A stretch of DNA of 64,000 nt from an uncultured Chitinophagales bacterium (GCA_964629885.1 CAZVRJ010000008.1:4524-68523), one strand, 5' to 3'. Positions 2,010 through 43,087 are shown, numbered from the stretch's first letter. Program-made: numbers and translations. The notes: generated by a model not told the origin, from the sequence alone.

Positions 2010-4061
2010 TCATTGCAGCAAAGGAAGTTCAATGGTGAATATGGATCCACCACTTGGGTTGTCGCGCATCACAATGCGTCCACCGTGTGCATTCACGATA
2101 CTACGCGCAATGGAAAGTCCTAAACCGTAGGGTTTTTCGCCACTGGTGCCCGATCGCTTTGCTTTTGTGAATGAATCAAAAATGGTCTCACGCATATCGG
2201 CTGGAACACCAATCCCTTTGTCTACGACCATAATCTCAATCTTTTCATTGTCGTCCACTGCAGATACGACCACATCAGAACCTTTCGGGCTGAATTTTAC
2301 GGCGTTACCGATGAGGTTAAATACGGCCCTCGTGATCTTTTCTGGGTCGATTCGTATCACCTTTTCCTTACCCAATCCATAGTAGACCAGACTTTGACCC
2401 TTTTCTTTTGCCCTGAACTGCATCATTTCTACAATTCGGAATAAAAGCTCATTGATGTCGGTGCTACGTGCGTCAATCTTGATTCGGTCTTCGTCGGCAA
2501 GCGTCAAAATGTCGCCGATGAACCTTTGGGCACTCGTCGTGGCGAAACTGATTTGATTAACAATTTCCTGATTGCCGTCACTTATGGAATCATGTTGAAG
2601 CAGCTGAGTCAAATTTTGAATGGCGCCAAGCGGATTTCGAAGATCGTGAGCCACCATCCACATAATTCTGTCCTTCTCAACGCTAGATTCCTTGAGTTGC
2701 TGCACGGTAAATTCTAGCTCCCGCTTCTGAGTGTTTACCTGGTCGTTGAGCTCGCTAAGCATAATGTGGCTCTTCATCAACTGGCGCCAAGCAAAGTAAA
2801 TGATCAACAGGACTACAATGAACAGGGATATGACAATACTGATACCATACAGCCATAGGGTGCGAATTTCACTATCGGCCCTCAGGCGCTCCAATTCCTT
2901 CTGAGCCAGTGTATAATTGTACTCATTTGAGGCTTCGGTGTTGAACATCATCAAGTTCACCTGCTTTAGCGAATCATCTTTATGATTGTGTAACAAACGG
3001 TCTTCGAGTGCCAGACGATATTCCCCCCGTAGATGATACAGCCTCGATCGGGCGTCGAGCAAGCGTACGATGGTATCAGGATTTGGAAATTGGCTGACAT
3101 AATCTTCGACCTGCTTTAAGAGGGAATCCGCACCAATAATGTCGCCTCTATTCATGTACAACTTTGCTAGGTGTATTCTCGACAGACTGGCATCATTGTT
3201 GTCCCTATCGGGCAGGTTGTTGAACTCAATGCTGCGCTCAAACAGCGGCTCAGCTCGACTTGGCTCTCCGAGGAGTACAAATGACTGTGCCATATTGCCA
3301 TAAATGACCCCCAACGCAATCTCTATGAATGCAGAGTCTACTTCTACGCTAAATCGATTAGTATGTATATAATCGATGGCTTTTTTGTGATAGACCATTG
3401 CACTGTCGAAGACTGCTGCCCTCGCATAGCTGATGGCAATGTCGTCGAGTCGACGCTGCATCCTTGTGAAATGAGCTACTGCGGTATCGCAGTCGTCTAG
3501 GGCGACAATCGACTTTTTGAAATACTCAGCTGCATCGAGGTAGTTCTGTCTGCGATAGAGCACGCCTGCAAAACGGGAATCATATCGGGATATAAGGCAT
3601 TTATCATCCAAGTTCAATCCGATAGTCCTAGCACGCATGTAGAACGTATAAGCCCTGTTGTTCTGGTAGAGATAATTGTTGAAGATGTCGCCCTTGTACA
3701 GGTAAGTCAAGGCTAACTCATTCAGCATGTTCGACTTATGCTCTGAGAACTCAAGGTAGATGATCAGGCTGTCCACGATTTCGAGCGAGCGATCAAAATC
3801 TCGCTTTTCATTACTGAGGTATGCGTCGAATACACGCTTTCTCCAATACTCAACAGGCGACGGTTTTTTCACAGCGGCATAGATCGAATCGACCCTACGC
3901 TGGGCTTCGTCTATGCCATCCCGACCTCTTACGCCTATCAGATTTTGATAGTCTTCTTCGGTGATTGTCTGCAAATATTGCACATTGTCCGAGACTGTGC
4001 ATGACACGGACAGAACGGCTAGCATGGAGACCAAAAGAACACTGCGCAGAACGTAAATCAC
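2010..4061 (-). CDS. TPR-repeat sensor histidine kinase (lipoprotein-like N-terminus, one TM, HisKA + HATPase_c)
   Basis: C-terminal H-box (MWMVAHDLRNPL), N-box (NLIGNAVKF) and G-boxes (DKGIGV, GLGLSIA), with long TPR-like repeats upstream of the TM segment ISIVISLFIVVLLIIYF. The ORF-track start at 4484 reads through a tRNA and a terminator. The likely start is GTG 4061 (MIYVLRSVLLVSMLAVLSVSC); ATG 4025 is the alternative. Confidence 0.8.
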   Translation of the reverse strand: MIYVLRSVLLVSMLAVLSVSCTVSDNVQYLQTITEEDYQNLIGVRGRDGIDEAQRRVDSIYAAVKKPSPVEYWRKRVFDAYLSNEKRDFDRSLEIVDSLIIYLEFSEHKSNMLNELALTYLYKGDIFNNYLYQNNRAYTFYMRARTIGLNLDDKCLISRYDSRFAGVLYRRQNYLDAAEYFKKSIVALDDCDTAVAHFTRMQRRLDDIAISYARAAVFDSAMVYHKKAIDYIHTNRFSVEVDSAFIEIALGVIYGNMAQSFVLLGEPSRAEPLFERSIEFNNLPDRDNNDASLSRIHLAKLYMNRGDIIGADSLLKQVEDYVSQFPNPDTIVRLLDARSRLYHLRGEYRLALEDRLLHNHKDDSLKQVNLMMFNTEASNEYNYTLAQKELERLRADSEIRTLWLYGISIVISLFIVVLLIIYFAWRQLMKSHIMLSELNDQVNTQKRELEFTVQQLKESSVEKDRIMWMVAHDLRNPLGAIQNLTQLLQHDSISDGNQEIVNQISFATTSAQRFIGDILTLADEDRIKIDARSTDINELLFRIVEMMQFRAKEKGQSLVYYGLGKEKVIRIDPEKITRAVFNLIGNAVKFSPKGSDVVVSAVDDNEKIEIMVVDKGIGVPADMRETIFDSFTKAKRSGTSGEKPYGLGLSIARSIVNAHGGRIVMRDNPSGGSIFTIELPLLQ

Positions 4062-38600: not shown

Positions 38601-40672
38601 AAGAAGGCGTGGCTGAGGTGTCGGCCGTTGAAGATGCACGCAACTATTTGAATACGAAAATCAGCTCTGGCGAACTCGTGTTGCCCGATGGAGTTCGTTA
38701 TGTTTTCTCAGGCAGCTACGAAAACCAAGTAAGGGCTGAGAAGCGGCTTGCGTTCGTCATACCGTTATGTTTGATCTTGATTGTACTGATCCTCTATTTC
38801 CAGTTTAGGTCGGTCGGAACCGCCATGATGATTTTCACGGCCATTGCAATGGCGTTCTCGGGAGGTTTCATCATGGTGTGGCTATATGCCCAGCCATGGT
38901 TCCTTGATTTCAACATATTCGGCACGGAGATGAGGACTTTGTTCCAGATATCGCCCGTCAACTTGAGTGTTGCCGTTTGGGTTGGATTCATCGCCCTTTT
39001 CGGCATTGCCACCGACGATGGTGTGGTGATGGCTACCTACCTTGACCAGACTTTTGCTTCAAGGGTCACAAATACCACAGAGGAAATACGCGCTGCTGTA
39101 CTAGAGGCCGGGCTTAAGCGAATTCGTCCATGTCTTATGACCACTGCCACCACTCTGTTAGCTCTGCTTCCAGTACTTACATCGAGTGGACGCGGTGCCG
39201 ATATTATGATCCCGATGGCGATTCCTGCATTCGGGGGGATGACCGTCGCATTGATCACGCTTTTTGTGGTGCCTGTTCTGTACAGCTGGAAAGCGGAGAG
39301 AACAGCAGGTGCAACTGCAAGATCAGGAGCAACTGCAAGAGCAGGAGCAGGAACGGCATCGATAGGCGAAAAAGATGGTGAAACTAAGGGCGGTGGCAAA
39401 CCACCATTCTTGTCGTTGCTCTTGTTCTTGCCGTTGCTCTTGTTCTTGCTCTCGCCATTGTTCTTGTTCTCGAATCAAGCTAGTGCACAATCACTGCCGT
39501 CATCTCTATGGCAGAAGGCGGTTGAGAATAACCCTCGACTGGAGATATACCGTCAGAATCTTGTATCCCAAGAGGCTCTGAAACGGTCGGTGGGAGCTTG
39601 GCCCAATCTTGAGATCGAGGCCGGCGTGTTAGTCCGCCCGATGGAACTGATGATGGGCGATCAAAGGTTCAGCTTTTCCGTGATGCAGATGCTGCCACGG
39701 ACGGCTGAATTTAAGTACCAACGCGAGGAGATCGATGCCATGTCGGGCGCTGAGCAGGCACTGCTCGATGAGACCTTGCGAATGATTCGCCGCGAGTTGA
39801 CCGAAGCTTGGATCGAACGCGTCGCACTCGAACATGAGATGAACCTCATGGATGATGCCCTCGAGATAATGAACCAGATGCAGTCGGCTGTCCGCGACCG
39901 GGTTTCCACAACAGCAAGCAATTCCGATTGGATTCGTATCGAGATGCGCATCCTCGAAATGGAAGATGTTCACGCTGCCATGGAAGACAAGATCGAAGCG
40001 CTGAACCAGAAGATATGGAGCCTCACAGGCGACAAGCAGCGATCATCCATCCCAATTGCCGATAGTCTTTCGATAGCCAGCTATCGCTTTGCAAGGCAAG
40101 TGCCTGATTTCAGCGACCATCCTGCCGTTCGCATGTTCGATTTCGAGGCCAATGCTGCGATAGCGCGTGCAAGGATGACGGAATCGATGCTGCGCCCGAT
40201 GTTTGGGATTGGCGTACAGTACACTCCTATCAAACCGAGGGAGTCTATGGGTGAGCGAACAAGTGGTGGCGATATGATTATGCCAATGTTCACCTTAAGC
40301 GTGCCGACATCTCGCGATAAGGTAAGAGCGCTATCGGAGGCATCGCGATCAGAGTCGCTCAGTATCCAGCGGGCTAAAGAAGACAAAATAGCTGAGCTTC
40401 AAATTCAGTGGGCCAAAGCCATATCAGAGCTCCAGCAAGCCGAGCGCAACCTCATCACAGCCAGTCGACAAAGAGCATTGTCGAAGGAATTGTACGATAA
40501 CGAGCTTGTTCAATTCCAAACCGGAATGGGTAACCTCGACATGCTGCTCGACATCCAAGAGAGTTGGGTCGGGTATCGCATGAAATCGCTCGAAGCAACC
40601 ATGCGTCAGCGAATGGCCTTCGCCATGCTAGAAGAACTTCAACCTTCCATTACAGGGAGCACAAACCAATGA
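35675..40672 (+). CDS. CusA/CzcA-family heavy-metal RND efflux pump, continuous in frame with a TolC-like outer-membrane factor (1665-aa ORF)
   Basis: The first approximately 1205 aa have RND topology (12 TM helices, two large periplasmic loops, HME-type sequence). No stop codon occurs before the OMF-like C-terminal approximately 395 aa. The junction is made of hexamer repeats. Confidence 0.8.
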   Translation: MLQSIIRFFLDQKLVTVLFAGLLIAWGLSTAPFKWDVPFLPSDPVPVDAIPDIGENQQIVYTEWMGRSPQDVEDQITYPLTSTLLGLPGVKSIRSTSMFGFSSIYVIFEDNVDYYWSRTRILEKINALPADLLPTSVQPRLGPDATALGQVYWYTLEVLDQDGNLVQGVWDLHELRSIQDFQVKPALNATPGVSEVASVGGYVMEYQVDLDPSSLRLYNISVMDVMNAIRASNQDVGANTLEINQVEYLVRGLGYIRSVADLEESVITERNNVPIRIADVGRVNIGPAPRGERGILDRDGVEVTGGVVVARYGDNPMQVIEALKERIALLEPGLPQRTLEDGRTVKVSIVPFYDRSVLIRETLGTLNDAISLQILITIIVILVMVRNLRASIMISVILPIAVLMTFILMRYFSVDANIVALSGIAIAIGTLVDLGIILSENVLRHKDEASEGEPLRDIIYRASVEVAPAILTAVSTTIVSFLPVFTLQAAEGKLFTPLAWTKTFALVAAVVITLTMLPALAHALLGMRIKRGESGAKSQAGPIERYGLWLAVVVVSIFLTAAWLPLGVQVGLLVNLLFVALILAIVLGGFYLFLKYYPTLLAWCLENKLKFLSIPAVIILFGAMIWLGFPRVFGFVAKAGDSVGMNVRVTAPWSFMAHSFPGLGKEFMPSLDEGAFLLMPTVMPHAGVEISREYLSRLDRLVTAIPEVETVVGKAGRAESALDPAPLSMFENVILYKPEFKTDADGRKLRFKIDDEGNFVTDDRGELIPDNRGQYYRQWRDHIRTPDDIWQEIVTATTLPGITSAPKLQPIETRLVMLQTGMRAPMGIKVYGPDLETIEAFSIELEAQLKEVPSLKEASVFAERSVGKPYLEIKLDRPAMARYGIMVAEVQEVIEVAVGGMPLTTTVEGRERYNIRARFARDFRDSPESLEGILIPTMMGSQIPLGQIAEITYRRGPMMIRGEDTFLTGYVLFDRQEGVAEVSAVEDARNYLNTKISSGELVLPDGVRYVFSGSYENQVRAEKRLAFVIPLCLILIVLILYFQFRSVGTAMMIFTAIAMAFSGGFIMVWLYAQPWFLDFNIFGTEMRTLFQISPVNLSVAVWVGFIALFGIATDDGVVMATYLDQTFASRVTNTTEEIRAAVLEAGLKRIRPCLMTTATTLLALLPVLTSSGRGADIMIPMAIPAFGGMTVALITLFVVPVLYSWKAERTAGATARSGATARAGAGTASIGEKDGETKGGGKPPFLSLLLFLPLLLFLLSPLFLFSNQASAQSLPSSLWQKAVENNPRLEIYRQNLVSQEALKRSVGAWPNLEIEAGVLVRPMELMMGDQRFSFSVMQMLPRTAEFKYQREEIDAMSGAEQALLDETLRMIRRELTEAWIERVALEHEMNLMDDALEIMNQMQSAVRDRVSTTASNSDWIRIEMRILEMEDVHAAMEDKIEALNQKIWSLTGDKQRSSIPIADSLSIASYRFARQVPDFSDHPAVRMFDFEANAAIARARMTESMLRPMFGIGVQYTPIKPRESMGERTSGGDMIMPMFTLSVPTSRDKVRALSEASRSESLSIQRAKEDKIAELQIQWAKAISELQQAERNLITASRQRALSKELYDNELVQFQTGMGNLDMLLDIQESWVGYRMKSLEATMRQRMAFAMLEELQPSITGSTNQ
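39305..39352. repeat. Hexamer array, purine-rich orientation (GCAGGT GCAACT GCAAGA TCAGGA GCAACT GCAAGA GCAGGA GCAGGA), with 18-nt super-period
   Basis: Read directly. It translates as AGATARSGATARAGAG in the long ORF. Confidence 0.9.
39407..39472. repeat. Hexamer array, complementary orientation (11 x NNCTTG: TTCTTG TCGTTG CTCTTG TTCTTG CCGTTG CTCTTG TTCTTG CTCTCG CCATTG TTCTTG TTCTCG)
   Basis: Read directly. It translates as FLSLLLFLPLLLFLLSPLFLFS. An 18-nt unit (TCGTTGCTCTTGTTCTTG) is repeated with one mismatch. Confidence 0.9.
39410..40672 (+). CDS. TolC-family outer-membrane efflux factor module (possible separate gene with TTG start inside the repeat)
   Basis: After the hydrophobic stretch and an ASA-Q cleavage-like site, the sequence QSLPSSLWQKAVENNPRLE... 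resembles the N-terminus of mature OMFs. The approximately 395-aa size fits TolC-like proteins. No ATG or GTG is available in frame, so the start is speculative. Confidence 0.45.
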   Translation: MSLLLFLPLLLFLLSPLFLFSNQASAQSLPSSLWQKAVENNPRLEIYRQNLVSQEALKRSVGAWPNLEIEAGVLVRPMELMMGDQRFSFSVMQMLPRTAEFKYQREEIDAMSGAEQALLDETLRMIRRELTEAWIERVALEHEMNLMDDALEIMNQMQSAVRDRVSTTASNSDWIRIEMRILEMEDVHAAMEDKIEALNQKIWSLTGDKQRSSIPIADSLSIASYRFARQVPDFSDHPAVRMFDFEANAAIARARMTESMLRPMFGIGVQYTPIKPRESMGERTSGGDMIMPMFTLSVPTSRDKVRALSEASRSESLSIQRAKEDKIAELQIQWAKAISELQQAERNLITASRQRALSKELYDNELVQFQTGMGNLDMLLDIQESWVGYRMKSLEATMRQRMAFAMLEELQPSITGSTNQ

Positions 40673-42402
40673 GAACCGAAACATCATCATTTAGCCTACA
40701 GAACAAGAATTGGAGAAAGTGGGCAGTTTACGCAGGAATCCTGATACTTGGATTGATTGGCGGACGCCTGATATGGGGTGGTGGCGACCCTCACGCCGGT
40801 CACGACCATGCTACGACCGAAGATGGAGAGATTATTTGGACTTGCTCGATGCACCCACAAATTCGCGAAGATGGTCCGGGAAAATGCCCCCTTTGTGGCA
40901 TGGATCTGACCCCGCTGAGCGCATCGGGTGGATCTGGAGCCGATGCAGGTATCATACGGTTATCGGCTAACGAGCTCAATTTGGCAGGAGTTAGGACTAC
41001 CAGGGTCGGCGGTGCGTCGTCCGACGGAACCATCATGCTAACCGGTCGAATAACCCCCGACGAACGACTTCGTGCGGTGCTTACTGCCCACATTGGCGGA
41101 CGCATCGAAAACTTGATGGTTGACTTCACGGGCAGCAGGGTCTATGCCGGCCAGATATTGGCCGAAATCTATTCGCCGGAGCTCCTTAATGCTCAACAGG
41201 AACTGCGTCAGATGTACCAGTTCCGCGAGCAGCAACCATCCCTTTACAAGGCCACCCGCGATAAAATCGCCCTTTGGAAGTTCTCTGAGAGTGAAATCGA
41301 CGCGATGGCCACCTCAGCTGAAATCAAGGCCGTAGTGCCGGTAAGGGCAGAGCGCAGTGGTGTGGTTACGGCGCTAAATGCCAGGAAAGGTATGTACGTA
41401 GAACGCGGCGAAATGCTCATGGAAATCGACGACCTTAGCTCCGTCTGGGTGATATTAGATGCCTTTGAGCAGGACCTATCTCGCGTGAGGATTGGGCAAA
41501 CTATGGAAATCGTGGCTGATGCCCACCCGGGAGACACATTCAAAGCATCGGTGAGGTTCATCGATCCTATGCTGAATCCAGAAACCCGCACCGTGGCGAT
41601 CCGTGCTGAGCTCAATAACCCAGGAAACAAACTGAAACCCGACATGCTGGTACGGGCACGTCTTCAGCAAGGCGGGAATCGAAGCGAAGTGCTAACCATT
41701 CCAGCCACAGCAGTGCTGTGGACTGGGAACCGTTCGGTGGTTTACGTTAAAGAACCGGGAAGTGACCACGACGGTAGTGGATTTCGAATGGTGGATGTTA
41801 CCCTGGGTCCAAGAACCGGAAACTCCTACGAAATAAAAAAGGGTCTCTCATCTGGCGATGAGGTCGTAACTCATGCGGCTTTCACCATCGACTCGGCCGC
41901 TCAGCTCATGGGAATGGAGAGCATGATGAGCCAGCGCATCCAACGTGCCGCCGAAGATGAGGCTCTTCAGAAGTCCATCGTGCAGGCCGTGAAGCCTTAC
42001 TTAGATCTGAAGGACGCCTTGGTTGCATCCGACAACGGCTTGGCTGCCACCAAAGCCCGTGAAGTTGTGACGGCTTGGGAACGTTTCACCACCAATCCAC
42101 AAAATGAAGATGAATTGGAGATGTGGAGTACCATGAAATCGTCGGTGCTGAACGGTGCTCGCAGTACAGCCAGCTCGACGGATCTGGAAAAGCGCCGAGC
42201 TGATTTTGAAATCCTAAGTGATGCGCTCATTGCTCTCATCGACAGGTATGGAATTTCTGGCACCACGCTTTACAAGCAGTATTGTCCAATGGCCTTTGAC
42301 GATAAAGGATCCTATTGGATCAGTACCGAACGCCAGATTCGCAATCCGTACTTTGGGTCCATGATGTTGTCATGCGGAGAAGTGCGTGGAACTTGGGAAT
42401 AG
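40669..42402 (+). CDS. Efflux RND periplasmic adaptor (CusB/CzcB-like MFP) with N-terminal Cys4 metal-binding domain and C-terminal DUF3347-like region
   Basis: The ATG 40669 overlaps the upstream stop (ATGA). TM anchor, CSMHPQIREDGPGKCPLCGMDL motif, HlyD-like barrel-sandwich region, and a C-terminal helical region (VKPYLDLKDALVASD). Confidence 0.85.
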   Translation: MRTETSSFSLQNKNWRKWAVYAGILILGLIGGRLIWGGGDPHAGHDHATTEDGEIIWTCSMHPQIREDGPGKCPLCGMDLTPLSASGGSGADAGIIRLSANELNLAGVRTTRVGGASSDGTIMLTGRITPDERLRAVLTAHIGGRIENLMVDFTGSRVYAGQILAEIYSPELLNAQQELRQMYQFREQQPSLYKATRDKIALWKFSESEIDAMATSAEIKAVVPVRAERSGVVTALNARKGMYVERGEMLMEIDDLSSVWVILDAFEQDLSRVRIGQTMEIVADAHPGDTFKASVRFIDPMLNPETRTVAIRAELNNPGNKLKPDMLVRARLQQGGNRSEVLTIPATAVLWTGNRSVVYVKEPGSDHDGSGFRMVDVTLGPRTGNSYEIKKGLSSGDEVVTHAAFTIDSAAQLMGMESMMSQRIQRAAEDEALQKSIVQAVKPYLDLKDALVASDNGLAATKAREVVTAWERFTTNPQNEDELEMWSTMKSSVLNGARSTASSTDLEKRRADFEILSDALIALIDRYGISGTTLYKQYCPMAFDDKGSYWISTERQIRNPYFGSMMLSCGEVRGTWE

Positions 42403-42424: not shown

Positions 42425-43087
42425 TTAGGTGCAGTGATTGACCTGAAAGGGTGTCACCACTTTATGCTTGTGGTTGCTCATTCTATGAACGTATAAAGAT
42501 ATCAAGCTGGCAATCGCCACGGCATAAAGTGTCCACAGATAAACGTTGAGTAATAAGCCCTCTGACCAATCAGGCCCAGTAAGATGGGTGTGGATTGCTG
42601 CCAACGTGATCCAGATGATGGATGTTCTGTGAATCCACCTCCATAGAGTTGGAACGCCATGAATAATGGTTGCCGACATGGTGATTGCCAATCCATAAAA
42701 TCCGTAGATGCCGATGTTCACTTCCCATCGGCGGTGAAACGGTAAAAGGGACATGAATGCGCGGTAGAGGTCGTCTGGCAAAAATCTAGCTGTCAATAGC
42801 AGTGCATGCGCTAATGCCAAGAAGACCACTACAAGCCCAAGCTGGTGGTGCAGGCAAAGTCTCTGACCTTTGGTACCGATCATCTTGTCGATCGGCTTCC
42901 AAGATGCCAAAAGGATCACCGAAATCACAAAAAGCGACATCGACAAATATCCGGTCAGATTTGATAAGGTTGTCCATGGTTCGACGGCGTGTCGGCTGGG
43001 TTCGCTGGTAGCCAGTAGCCGTAATGGTATCACAACGAGTGCGATTGCCCAAACAAGGGCGGTGCGCGAAAGCGCAGGAGATTTCAT
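42425..43087 (-). CDS. Ferric-reductase-like transmembrane domain protein (MsrQ/YedZ-like heme-binding membrane protein)
   Basis: 220 aa with about 6 TM helices and conserved-looking His residues inside TM helices (LHHQLGLVVVFLALAH; IHGV; AAIHTH). Confidence 0.55.
   Translation of the reverse strand: MKSPALSRTALVWAIALVVIPLRLLATSEPSRHAVEPWTTLSNLTGYLSMSLFVISVILLASWKPIDKMIGTKGQRLCLHHQLGLVVVFLALAHALLLTARFLPDDLYRAFMSLLPFHRRWEVNIGIYGFYGLAITMSATIIHGVPTLWRWIHRTSIIWITLAAIHTHLTGPDWSEGLLLNVYLWTLYAVAIASLISLYVHRMSNHKHKVVTPFQVNHCT

Follow-up and report, generated by a model that had tools for sequence, protein, structure and literature searches.

The 64,000-nucleotide (nt) stretch of DNA analysed here, which is referred to as the window, comes from an uncultured Chitinophagales bacterium (GCA_964629885.1, CAZVRJ010000008.1:4524-68523) and carries a heavy-metal efflux locus in which a resistance-nodulation-division (RND) pump and an outer-membrane factor (OMF) share a single open reading frame (ORF). 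The preferred reading, with a probability of about 0.7, is that this is a genuine and heritable fusion, in which the RND pump and its cognate OMF are translated as one polyprotein and the former signal peptide of the OMF serves as an extra transmembrane (TM) helix and is cleaved by signal peptidase. Tripartite efflux pumps are textbook three-gene machines, and to our knowledge all described systems consist of three separate polypeptides.

An initial annotation, made from the DNA alone, had claimed that no stop codon follows the CusA-like part and that the frame runs on into the OMF. The ORF list and its translation agree with this and give a single frame of 1665 amino acids (aa) plus stop (35675..40672, + strand), which holds the pump, a linker, a signal-like segment and the OMF. 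The order along the frame is ...VPVLYSWKAER / TAGATARSGATARAGAGTASIGEKDGETKGGGK / PPFLSLLLFLPLLLFLLSPLFLFSNQASA / QSLPSSLWQKAVENNPRLE..., and the parts comprise 1208 aa (RND), 34 aa (hydrophilic linker), 29 aa (a Leu/Phe-rich segment ending in A-S-A) and 394 aa (OMF). Two Pfam families are recognized in this one protein, ACR_tran (PF00873; E = 2e-166) and OEP (E = 3e-19, in 2 stretches). The same annotation had denied the OMF an ATG or GTG of its own, and between 39299 and 39487 the only in-frame candidates are indeed TTG codons, the first of them at 39410. The nearest ATG, at 39375, was correctly placed in another frame, where it opens an ORF of 68 aa.

A homolog search against 5.8 billion proteins yielded five that are fused, which stem from different JGI and Logan assemblies (P0001-P0005; 1653, 1646, 1657, 1659 and 1648 aa; 98-86% identical). 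Their contigs share the gene order of the window (glyoxalase, DJ-1, carbonic anhydrase, DUF8199, fused gene, adaptor, ferric-reductase-like gene, DPP-IV), and the 4-nt overlap between the fused gene and the adaptor gene is repeated in L001-L003 and L005. The 90% clusters of the five proteins add about 15 full-length fused copies, including an NCBI record of the identical 1665-aa product (P0454), and contain in-frame length variants (1655/1657 and 1648/1651 aa); P0419 is a further fused fragment. In the clade of the window, more than 20 independent assemblies (JGI, Logan and NCBI) carry fused orthologs, 1646-1665 aa in length. The window and L001 carry near-identical genes (dS 0.016-0.05), and the fused lineages apart from this pair have a nucleotide identity of 75-79% and saturated dS (>2). 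Across these lineages dN/dS is 0.02-0.03 for the RND half and 0.04-0.06 for the OMF half. Both halves are under strong purifying selection, and the frame has been maintained over long evolutionary time. Because the fused form is found in so many independent assemblies and is under purifying selection across saturated dS, the fusion is regarded as real. A comparison of the junction among related genomes, suggested at the outset as a check, divides them: the frame is fused and free of stop codons in L001-L005, and two separate genes with their own stop and start codons are found in the close relatives L091 and L092.

Fusions of this kind are also found outside the window clade. A HMMER scan of 1.84 billion representatives with a junction-spanning query detected further fused architectures in separate 50% clusters (P0152, P0183, P0151/P0450, P0182 and P0250). 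P0152 (1511 aa) is encoded on a 2.6-Mb NCBI contig, P0183 (1704 aa) belongs to a 51-member cluster in which full-length copies are numerous (ENA, Logan, NCBI, JGI and Tara Oceans), P0151/P0450 measures 1637 aa, and P0182 and P0250 are junction-spanning fragments. One of the 80 RND-OMF loci from GTDB species genomes is fused, that of a Balneolales metagenome-assembled genome (L035), which is distant from the window; the window type of fusion is absent among these 80 species-representative loci. The PtsI protein of the window has its close relatives (68-86% identical) on metagenome contigs, and its best named matches, at 36-39% identity, are Balneolales, Balneolaceae, Cyclonatronaceae and Fodinibius; by this comparison the host belongs to an uncultured lineage near Balneolales. 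At least six unrelated lineages have independent RND-OMF fusions, and these are built alike, with a basic RND tail, a hydrophobic segment of 15-20 aa, a small-x-small↓Q motif and the OMF in that order. In the P0183 family the 1704-aa fusion is followed by a CusB-like adaptor (L093/L094, 3001-8115), an arrangement seen in dozens of marine assemblies with a non-repetitive junction. P0258 (1347 aa), from the representative library, is of another kind: its RND part breaks off at about TM10 and continues directly with mid-OMF sequence, the last helices and a signal segment being absent. Unlike the orderly fusions, it probably represents a pseudogene formed by deletion or an assembly chimera.

The end of the pump half can be placed by alignment of its C-terminal 342 aa, the part used for this comparison, with Escherichia coli CusA (4dnt, 3k07), which extends up to CusA residue 1043 of 1054, at VPVLYS (phmmer E = 1e-39). 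Unfused orthologs have their RND stop 10-29 aa beyond the VPVLYSWKAE point, and the pump domain would end at about aa 1205. The C-terminus of CusA is cytoplasmic (PDB 3K07), and by homology to this structure (TM8-12) the chain would be cytoplasmic after the last RND helix. Hydropathy also reveals an extra hydrophobic stretch of about 54 aa (aa 545-598; window 37307-37468) between the canonical TM6 and TM7. In this CusA-like subfamily of 1218-1276 aa the stretch probably forms two TM segments, giving 14 helices instead of 12. The initial annotation had the RND part end with its 12th TM helix: the end at VPVLYS is upheld by the CusA alignment, and the count probably has to be raised to 14, so that an added repeat-encoded helix would be the 15th. 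The “copper/silver” label of the pump derives from JGI annotations of homologs.

By sequence alone the OMF part gave no OMF match in the PDB, either with phmmer or with a 7-sequence profile, and a fold comparison was therefore needed. The AlphaFold2 (AF2) model of this part (pLDDT 82.6, pTM 0.73) contains helices of about 70 residues together with β-strands, and Foldseek aligns it from residue 1 over some 400 columns with OprN, OprJ, SilC, CusC (3pik, TMq 0.78), OprM and TolC (E about 1e-13 to 1e-14; TMq 0.72-0.80). The two Pfam OEP stretches and the TolC-type fold place it in the OMF family, and the model indicates that the C-terminal 394 aa constitute a complete OMF protomer from Gln1272 onwards. 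This protomer carries neither an N-terminal Sec signal peptide nor a lipobox of its own, as the signal-like segment is internal and no Cys follows the cleavage motif.

The segment that joins the two halves has the h- and c-regions of a signal peptide. Residues 1243-1266 are among the most hydrophobic 19-aa spans of the whole 1665-aa protein (Kyte-Doolittle 2.59) and are followed by N-Q-A-S-A, which presents the canonical -3/-1 motif (FLSLLLFLPLLLFLLSPLFLFS-NQ-A-S-A↓Q). The Leu/Phe-rich h-region ahead of NQASA is encoded by the second of two repeat arrays, as the initial annotation had recognized. All of the fused orthologs L001-L005 have kept the motif A-[ST]-A↓Q[SP]LP, which occupies the same position as the signal-peptide ends of unfused OMFs (..NALS↓QPLP, ..TVQS↓QPLP and ..VYA↓QPLP). 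The internal h/c-region is, judged by sequence, homologous to the ordinary N-terminal signal peptides of the unfused orthologs. It does not lie at an N-terminus behind a short positive n-region, but 1242 residues into the protein. The linker that precedes it is hypervariable among the fused orthologs (22-34 hydrophilic residues) and always in frame, and linker and hydrophobic part (19-29 residues), in total 43-63 aa, have turned over almost completely between them; the linker of the window (RTAGATARSGATARAGAGTASIGEKDGETKGGGK) resembles the C-terminal tail of the unfused L092 RND (AGARARARTRAGAGVEIGTGFNEGDLK, followed by the stop). Signal peptidase I would cut at ASA↓QSLP, given the A-x-A motif, the homology to signal peptides and the inability of an uncleaved OMF to reach the outer membrane. 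Of the signal-peptidase site and mature TolC-family N-terminus described earlier, the motif (conserved in L001-L005) and the OMF fold beginning at Gln1272 stand, and the cut is a prediction. A genuine fusion with an internal signal peptide, one of three explanations first put forward, is strongly supported by the more than 20 assemblies, the at least six unrelated lineages, the selection on both halves and the signal-peptide homology.

The protein thus described would contain what a polyprotein of this type requires, namely a polytopic part ending in the cytoplasm (with its topology taken from CusA homology), an internal h-region with a cut site, and an exported partner. The last pump helix would leave the chain in the cytoplasm, followed by the 34-aa hydrophilic linker, which would consist of the old RND tail and a remnant of the n-region of the OMF signal peptide. 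The former h-region of the OMF would then insert from inside to outside as an extra TM helix, and the OMF would be carried into the periplasm through SecYEG, like the two periplasmic loops of about 300 aa in the pump itself. Cleavage by signal peptidase I at A-S-A↓QSLP would release an ordinary mature OMF for BAM-dependent assembly in the outer membrane, and the linker and extra helix would stay on the C-terminus of the pump. Since the OMF starts right after the motif and a TolC-type protomer works only in the outer membrane, cleavage would be required for function. Such a fusion would free OMF synthesis from re-initiation and fix a 1:1 ratio of the two products in an organism that barely uses Shine-Dalgarno (SD) sequences. 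An SD match of at least 5 nt is found in 3 of the 37 genes of the window, against a background of 4.4%. Near-absence of SD sequences is typical of Bacteroidota-like translation initiation. With so little SD use in this genome, a stop/start overlap or a fusion gains relevance for OMF expression.

The origin of the junction can be read from unfused relatives. Two outgroups (L006/P0006 and L008/P0011) have a 1218-aa RND, 86% and 80% identical, and a separate OMF of 439 or 416 aa; the genes are joined by an ATGA overlap or separated by a 35-nt gap, and the OMF signal peptides are those ending in ..NALS↓QPLP or ..TVQS↓QPLP. Within the clade itself L092 (P0420+P0452) is unfused. Its 1235-aa RND is 95.7% identical to that of the window, and the TGA of the RND gene overlaps the ATG of the OMF gene (ATGA). 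The OMF begins with MILMNSIGKHIDNYGQIAKIKGKPVLALALPLPLLLL...VYA↓QPLP and has its own n-region of about 23 aa (MILMNSIGK...), which the fused alleles lack. Other unfused members of the clade are L091/P0422, P0421, P0423, P0451 and P0453. Synteny and OMF h-/c-regions ending in ...A↓QPLP are shared by L092, L091, P0451 and P0453, and L092 also has the same arrays and hairpin; the unfused orthologs of the clade differ in the RND stop that overlaps the OMF ATG and in the n-region of the OMF. The window linker (AGATARSGATARAGAG..IGEKDGE / TKGGGKPP-FLSLL) looks as if the RND tail of L092 had been attached to the last residues of its OMF n-region (KIKGKPV-LALA). Relative to L092 the window lacks about 59 nt, which equals 3n+2, the exact length that brings both frames into register. 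Probably the fusion goes back to an ancestral ATGA overlap, from which a deletion of 3n+2 nt would have taken out both the stop and the start, along with about 18 codons. An alternative reconstruction, in which the ATG at 39375 and the TGA at 39379 (ATGGTGA) are the relic of a stop/start overlap followed by two frameshifts, was rejected: the +1 frame from this ATG contains no OMF-like sequence, and a single deletion explains the junction from the relatives.

At least three junction alleles, two of them fused types and one unfused, occur among genes of 95% identity or more, and the existence of relatives with a 96%-identical RND and two genes means that the junction is polymorphic. The near-identical genes of the window and L001 are set apart by an in-frame cassette that is sharply bounded and non-homologous, of 121 nt (39303-39423) versus 85 nt (L001 7629-7713). 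This difference, together with the unfused members of the clusters, points to recombination at the junction or a swapping of alleles. That unfused alleles coexist with fused ones further suggests functional equivalence of the two states, with no new function brought by the fusion.

Several observations weigh against the polyprotein reading. The charge of the linker next to the h-region is weak, with a net value of +1 to -1 over the last 10 residues (versus +3 overall), and the h-region of the window contains internal prolines and, at about 22 aa, is long. Uncleaved anchors can be formed by long hydrophobic segments. The cleavage is a prediction from sequence. The unfused P0451, P0452 and P0453 fall in the same 90% cluster as fused proteins, and the neighbor-joining tree of the OMF mixes fused and unfused forms with internal bootstrap values of 2-33%, too low to order these forms or to count the fusion events. 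Given such close unfused relatives, the fusion may be selectively neutral rather than advantageous. Finally, an in-frame ATG (L001 and L005) or GTG (L002) stands at the start of the h-region in some fused orthologs.

These last codons belong to the first alternative, according to which the OMF is made mainly from an internal start at the h-region, a TTG in the window and ATG or GTG in the relatives, and the loss of the stop has the read-through fusion as a by-product that is tolerated. G-rich, SD-like strings occur upstream (AAGGAGG in L004, GGGGGAGGA in L005 and GAGGTGAT in L002), and an independent OMF is viable, as the unfused relatives show. The type and position of the start are not conserved, and a signal peptide begun there would have no n-region. 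Before the h-region the P0183 family has a single in-frame Met, and in P0439 this is Ile. The strings were rejected as an internal ribosome-binding site for the main route, since SD sites are hardly used by the genes of the window, and they probably reflect just Lys/Gly codons. The candidate start would moreover lie inside a hairpin of -86 kcal/mol, and with no stop upstream every ribosome that finishes the RND enters the OMF anyway. Non-canonical initiation, the second of the explanations first put forward, is therefore unlikely as the main route, and some independent translation of the OMF may accompany the polyprotein.

A second alternative takes the inverted arrays themselves as the functional element, at the level of RNA or DNA (ribosome slowing, mRNA stability, or deletions and rearrangements), and the fusion as secondary. 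The arrays had been described from the start as inverted, partly complementary and separated by a 54-nt spacer, with an mRNA hairpin as a possibility; repeat searches and folding bear out both statements. Tandem Repeats Finder assigns periods of 18 and 6 to array 1 and of 6, 12, 18 and 24 to array 2, and an inverted-repeat search gives arms of 33-40 nt that are 78-85% complementary. Within the window the inverted partner is the sole other occurrence of the array-1 unit, for which shuffles predict 0 matches. The codons of array 1 (GCA AGA / GCA GGA / GCA ACT) and array 2 (CTC TTG / TTC TTG) form reverse-complementary hexamer families. The region folds at -85.6 kcal/mol, with z = -5.6 against dinucleotide shuffles and z = -4.8 against a codon shuffle within each half. 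By the latter measure predicted hairpins beyond composition, specific to their register, are also found in L001 (z -3.3) and in the unfused L092 (z -3.5; -88.4 kcal/mol). The units of the two arms differ together between loci (GCAAC/GTTGC in the window versus GCAAG/CTTGC in L092), and the shorter loop in the window is compatible with a hairpin-stimulated deletion of 59 nt relative to L092. The loop of the L092 hairpin (3742-3980) holds the RND stop, an SD-like GAGGGGGA and the OMF ATG.

Against a functional element of this kind stands its restricted occurrence. No significant hairpin was found in L002, L005, L091 and L003/L004 (z -0.3 to -1.8), nor in the outgroups L006 and L008, and the independent fusions L035 (z +0.9) and L093 (z +0.85) have no hairpin and non-repetitive junctions. 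A conserved regulatory hairpin was for this reason rejected as a general feature. Part of the pairing is compositional, because charged and small residues have purine-rich codons and Leu and Phe pyrimidine-rich ones, and shuffled controls of L003-L005 still fold at -45 to -61 kcal/mol. There is no intrinsic terminator, as no T-run follows the large hairpin and the scan yielded one local stem of 5-6 bp at about 39389-39406. The promoter scan of the array/hairpin region gave none, and Rfam 15 contains no family that matches at its gathering threshold. The plant miRNA-precursor matches MIR6462 (29 bits against 96) and MIR847 (25 bits against 184), at 39300-39445 (+), are generic long-hairpin look-alikes. 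The arrays are better described as lineage-specific, slippage-prone, low-complexity coding sequence, in which the codons for (A/R/T/G)n and (L/F)n happen to be reverse complements; their length changes in multiples of 6, so that the frame survives. Since L035 and L093 are fused without arrays or hairpin and L092 is unfused with both, arrays and hairpin are, on this comparison, unnecessary for fusion, and the predicted hairpin of L092 implies that it predates the fusion or is independent of it. As an explanation of the locus the functional element is improbable.

A fuller form of the polyprotein reading, which is favoured by a modest degree, leaves a role for the arrays: a polyprotein is split by signal peptidase I, the pump keeps the “signal peptide” as a permanent TM helix, the arrangement has arisen repeatedly in at least seven Bacteroidota/Balneolales-like lineages and coexists with unfused alleles in a population-level clade, and in the clade of the window the hairpin arrays may make the linker and promote the stop/start deletion behind the fusion.

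A third possibility is that the fusion is not cleaved and that the segment is a permanent anchor, which would tether the OMF to the inner-membrane pump, where it would form a cap in the periplasm or be a remnant without function. An h-region of the length seen in the window can disfavour signal peptidase, and this is the point in its favour; in the unfused L092, an equally long h-region is part of a normal signal peptide. The mature OMF begins right after A-S-A with no spacer, and the outer membrane lies more than 100 Å away from the membrane of the pump. The modelled protomer is of the full TolC type, including the β-barrel strands, and would be functional only in the outer membrane; its dN/dS shows that the OMF is functional. 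The Ala pair at -3/-1 has also been kept in L001-L005 despite the turnover of the linker. An uncleaved fusion is accordingly judged very unlikely.

The remaining explanation, a sequencing or assembly artefact or a recent inactivating indel in which two real genes were misjoined at a repeat, draws on the repetitive, hairpin-forming junction of a metagenome-assembled contig, on the close two-gene relatives and on the single cassette by which the window and L001 differ, and is hardly credible and, by the comparative data, refuted, since the fused form (including the identical 1665-aa product) was assembled more than 20 times by different pipelines, persists across saturated dS with purifying selection on the OMF half, has imperfect inverted arms unlike those of fold-back chimeras, and recurs in independent fusions with non-repetitive junctions.

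The locus resembles CusCBA, SilCBA and CzcCBA in that RND, OMF and membrane fusion protein (MFP) are all present and syntenic, with a pump that aligns to CusA, an OMF model that matches CusC and SilC, and a CusB-type adaptor, which consists of the CusB core plus an N-terminal HMBD and a C-terminal DUF3347. It differs from these systems in that RND and OMF form one ORF, in the order RND-OMF-MFP and in the extra hydrophobic pair of the RND; the OMF also lacks the lipobox Cys of CusC. A parallel to the architecture is FbcH, the cytochrome b-c1 polyprotein of Bradyrhizobium japonicum, which is reportedly cleaved into two subunits of one complex. The single FbcH ORF likewise encodes a polytopic protein of the inner membrane, then an internal signal peptide and, after it, an exported partner subunit. 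The FbcH product is said to stay at the inner membrane and its cleavage to be experimental, whereas here the product must go to the outer membrane and the cut is predicted. In Staphylococcus aureus LtaS, SpsB (a signal peptidase of type I) cuts a polytopic membrane protein from its exported domain, between the last TM helix and the extracytoplasmic part (PMC12260438). By contrast with the present case, that cut inactivates one enzyme and does not separate two proteins, and the organism is Gram-positive, with no outer membrane. As presented in section 5.7.6.3 of the 2021 Chem Rev tripartite review (PMC8277102), the single-chain SecDF of Thermus is a natural fusion within the RND superfamily, in which neighbouring genes of one machine have merged into one polypeptide; both of its halves are inner-membrane parts that stay joined, with no cross-compartment partner and no processing. 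No natural RND-OMF fusion appears in the portion of that review covered here, and none is reported in a survey of outer-membrane protein fusions or in full-text literature searches, where absence is no proof; such a fusion has apparently not been described before.

If the polyprotein reading is true, the C-terminus of an inner-membrane protein with 14 helices can serve to deliver a β-barrel/α-barrel outer-membrane protein, polyprotein processing in diderm bacteria is a task that signal peptidase I can take on, and an additional helix at the C-terminus is tolerated, or used, by an RND pump. The fused and unfused alleles of 96%-identical genes would provide a natural experiment on co-translational stoichiometry, on local assembly of pump and channel, and on expression without re-initiation where bacteria have no SD sites. 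The features of the locus are collected in Table 1.

Table 1. Features of the fused RND-OMF locus and its neighbours (positions are those of the window)
Feature	Position	Strand	Basis
RND-linker-signal segment-OMF polyprotein ORF	35675..40672	+	ORF list, translation, Pfam; identical 1665-aa product on record as P0454 (NCBI)
RND (CusA/CzcA-type heavy-metal efflux) moiety, aa 1-1208, ending ...VPVLYSWKAE after the last TM helix	35675..39298	+	CusA alignment, hydropathy, unfused orthologs
Hydrophilic linker, predicted cytoplasmic, aa 1209-1242, RTAGATARSGATARAGAGTASIGEKDGETKGGGK, net charge +3	39299..39400	+	Hydropathy, ortholog comparison
Array 1, purine-rich 18-nt/6-nt tandem repeat AGCAGGAGCAACTGCAAG, 5' arm of hairpin	39304..39352	+	Tandem Repeats Finder, inverted repeats, pattern search
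Inter-array spacer of 54 nt, predicted hairpin loop, with small local stem at 39392-39405	39353..39406	+	Repeat coordinates, folding
Internal signal-peptide-like segment, aa 1243-1271, PPFLSLLLFLPLLLFLLSPLFLFS-NQASA; h-region and c-region, Ala at -3/-1	39401..39487	+	Hydropathy, ortholog homology
Array 2, pyrimidine-rich TTCTTG/CTCTTG repeat encoding the Leu/Phe h-region, 3' arm of hairpin	39407..39470	+	Tandem Repeats Finder, folding
Predicted signal peptidase I cut	between 39487 and 39488	+	A-S-A motif
Predicted mature OMF, 394 aa, TolC/CusC fold, without lipobox Cys	39488..40669	+	AF2 model, Foldseek, Pfam OEP, dN/dS
Predicted long imperfect RNA/DNA hairpin, array 1 x array 2	39292..39480	+	Folding with shuffle controls
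CusB-like membrane fusion (adaptor) protein gene, ATG overlapping the polyprotein stop by 4 nt	40669..42402	+	Pfam HlyD_D23, HMBD, DUF3347
Small DUF8199 gene, about 130 aa, directly upstream of the RND gene	35188..35601	+	Kept in L001 and L003-L005
Ferric-reductase-like membrane protein gene, conserved downstream	42425..43087	-	Synteny

The small DUF8199 gene has no NCBIfam match. For 4 of the 5 fused homologs (P0001 and P0003-P0005) the precomputed Pfam assignment is PF00873 alone, and these proteins are named CusA/SilA. Annotation as CusA misses the OMF, so that operons of this type can look channel-less.

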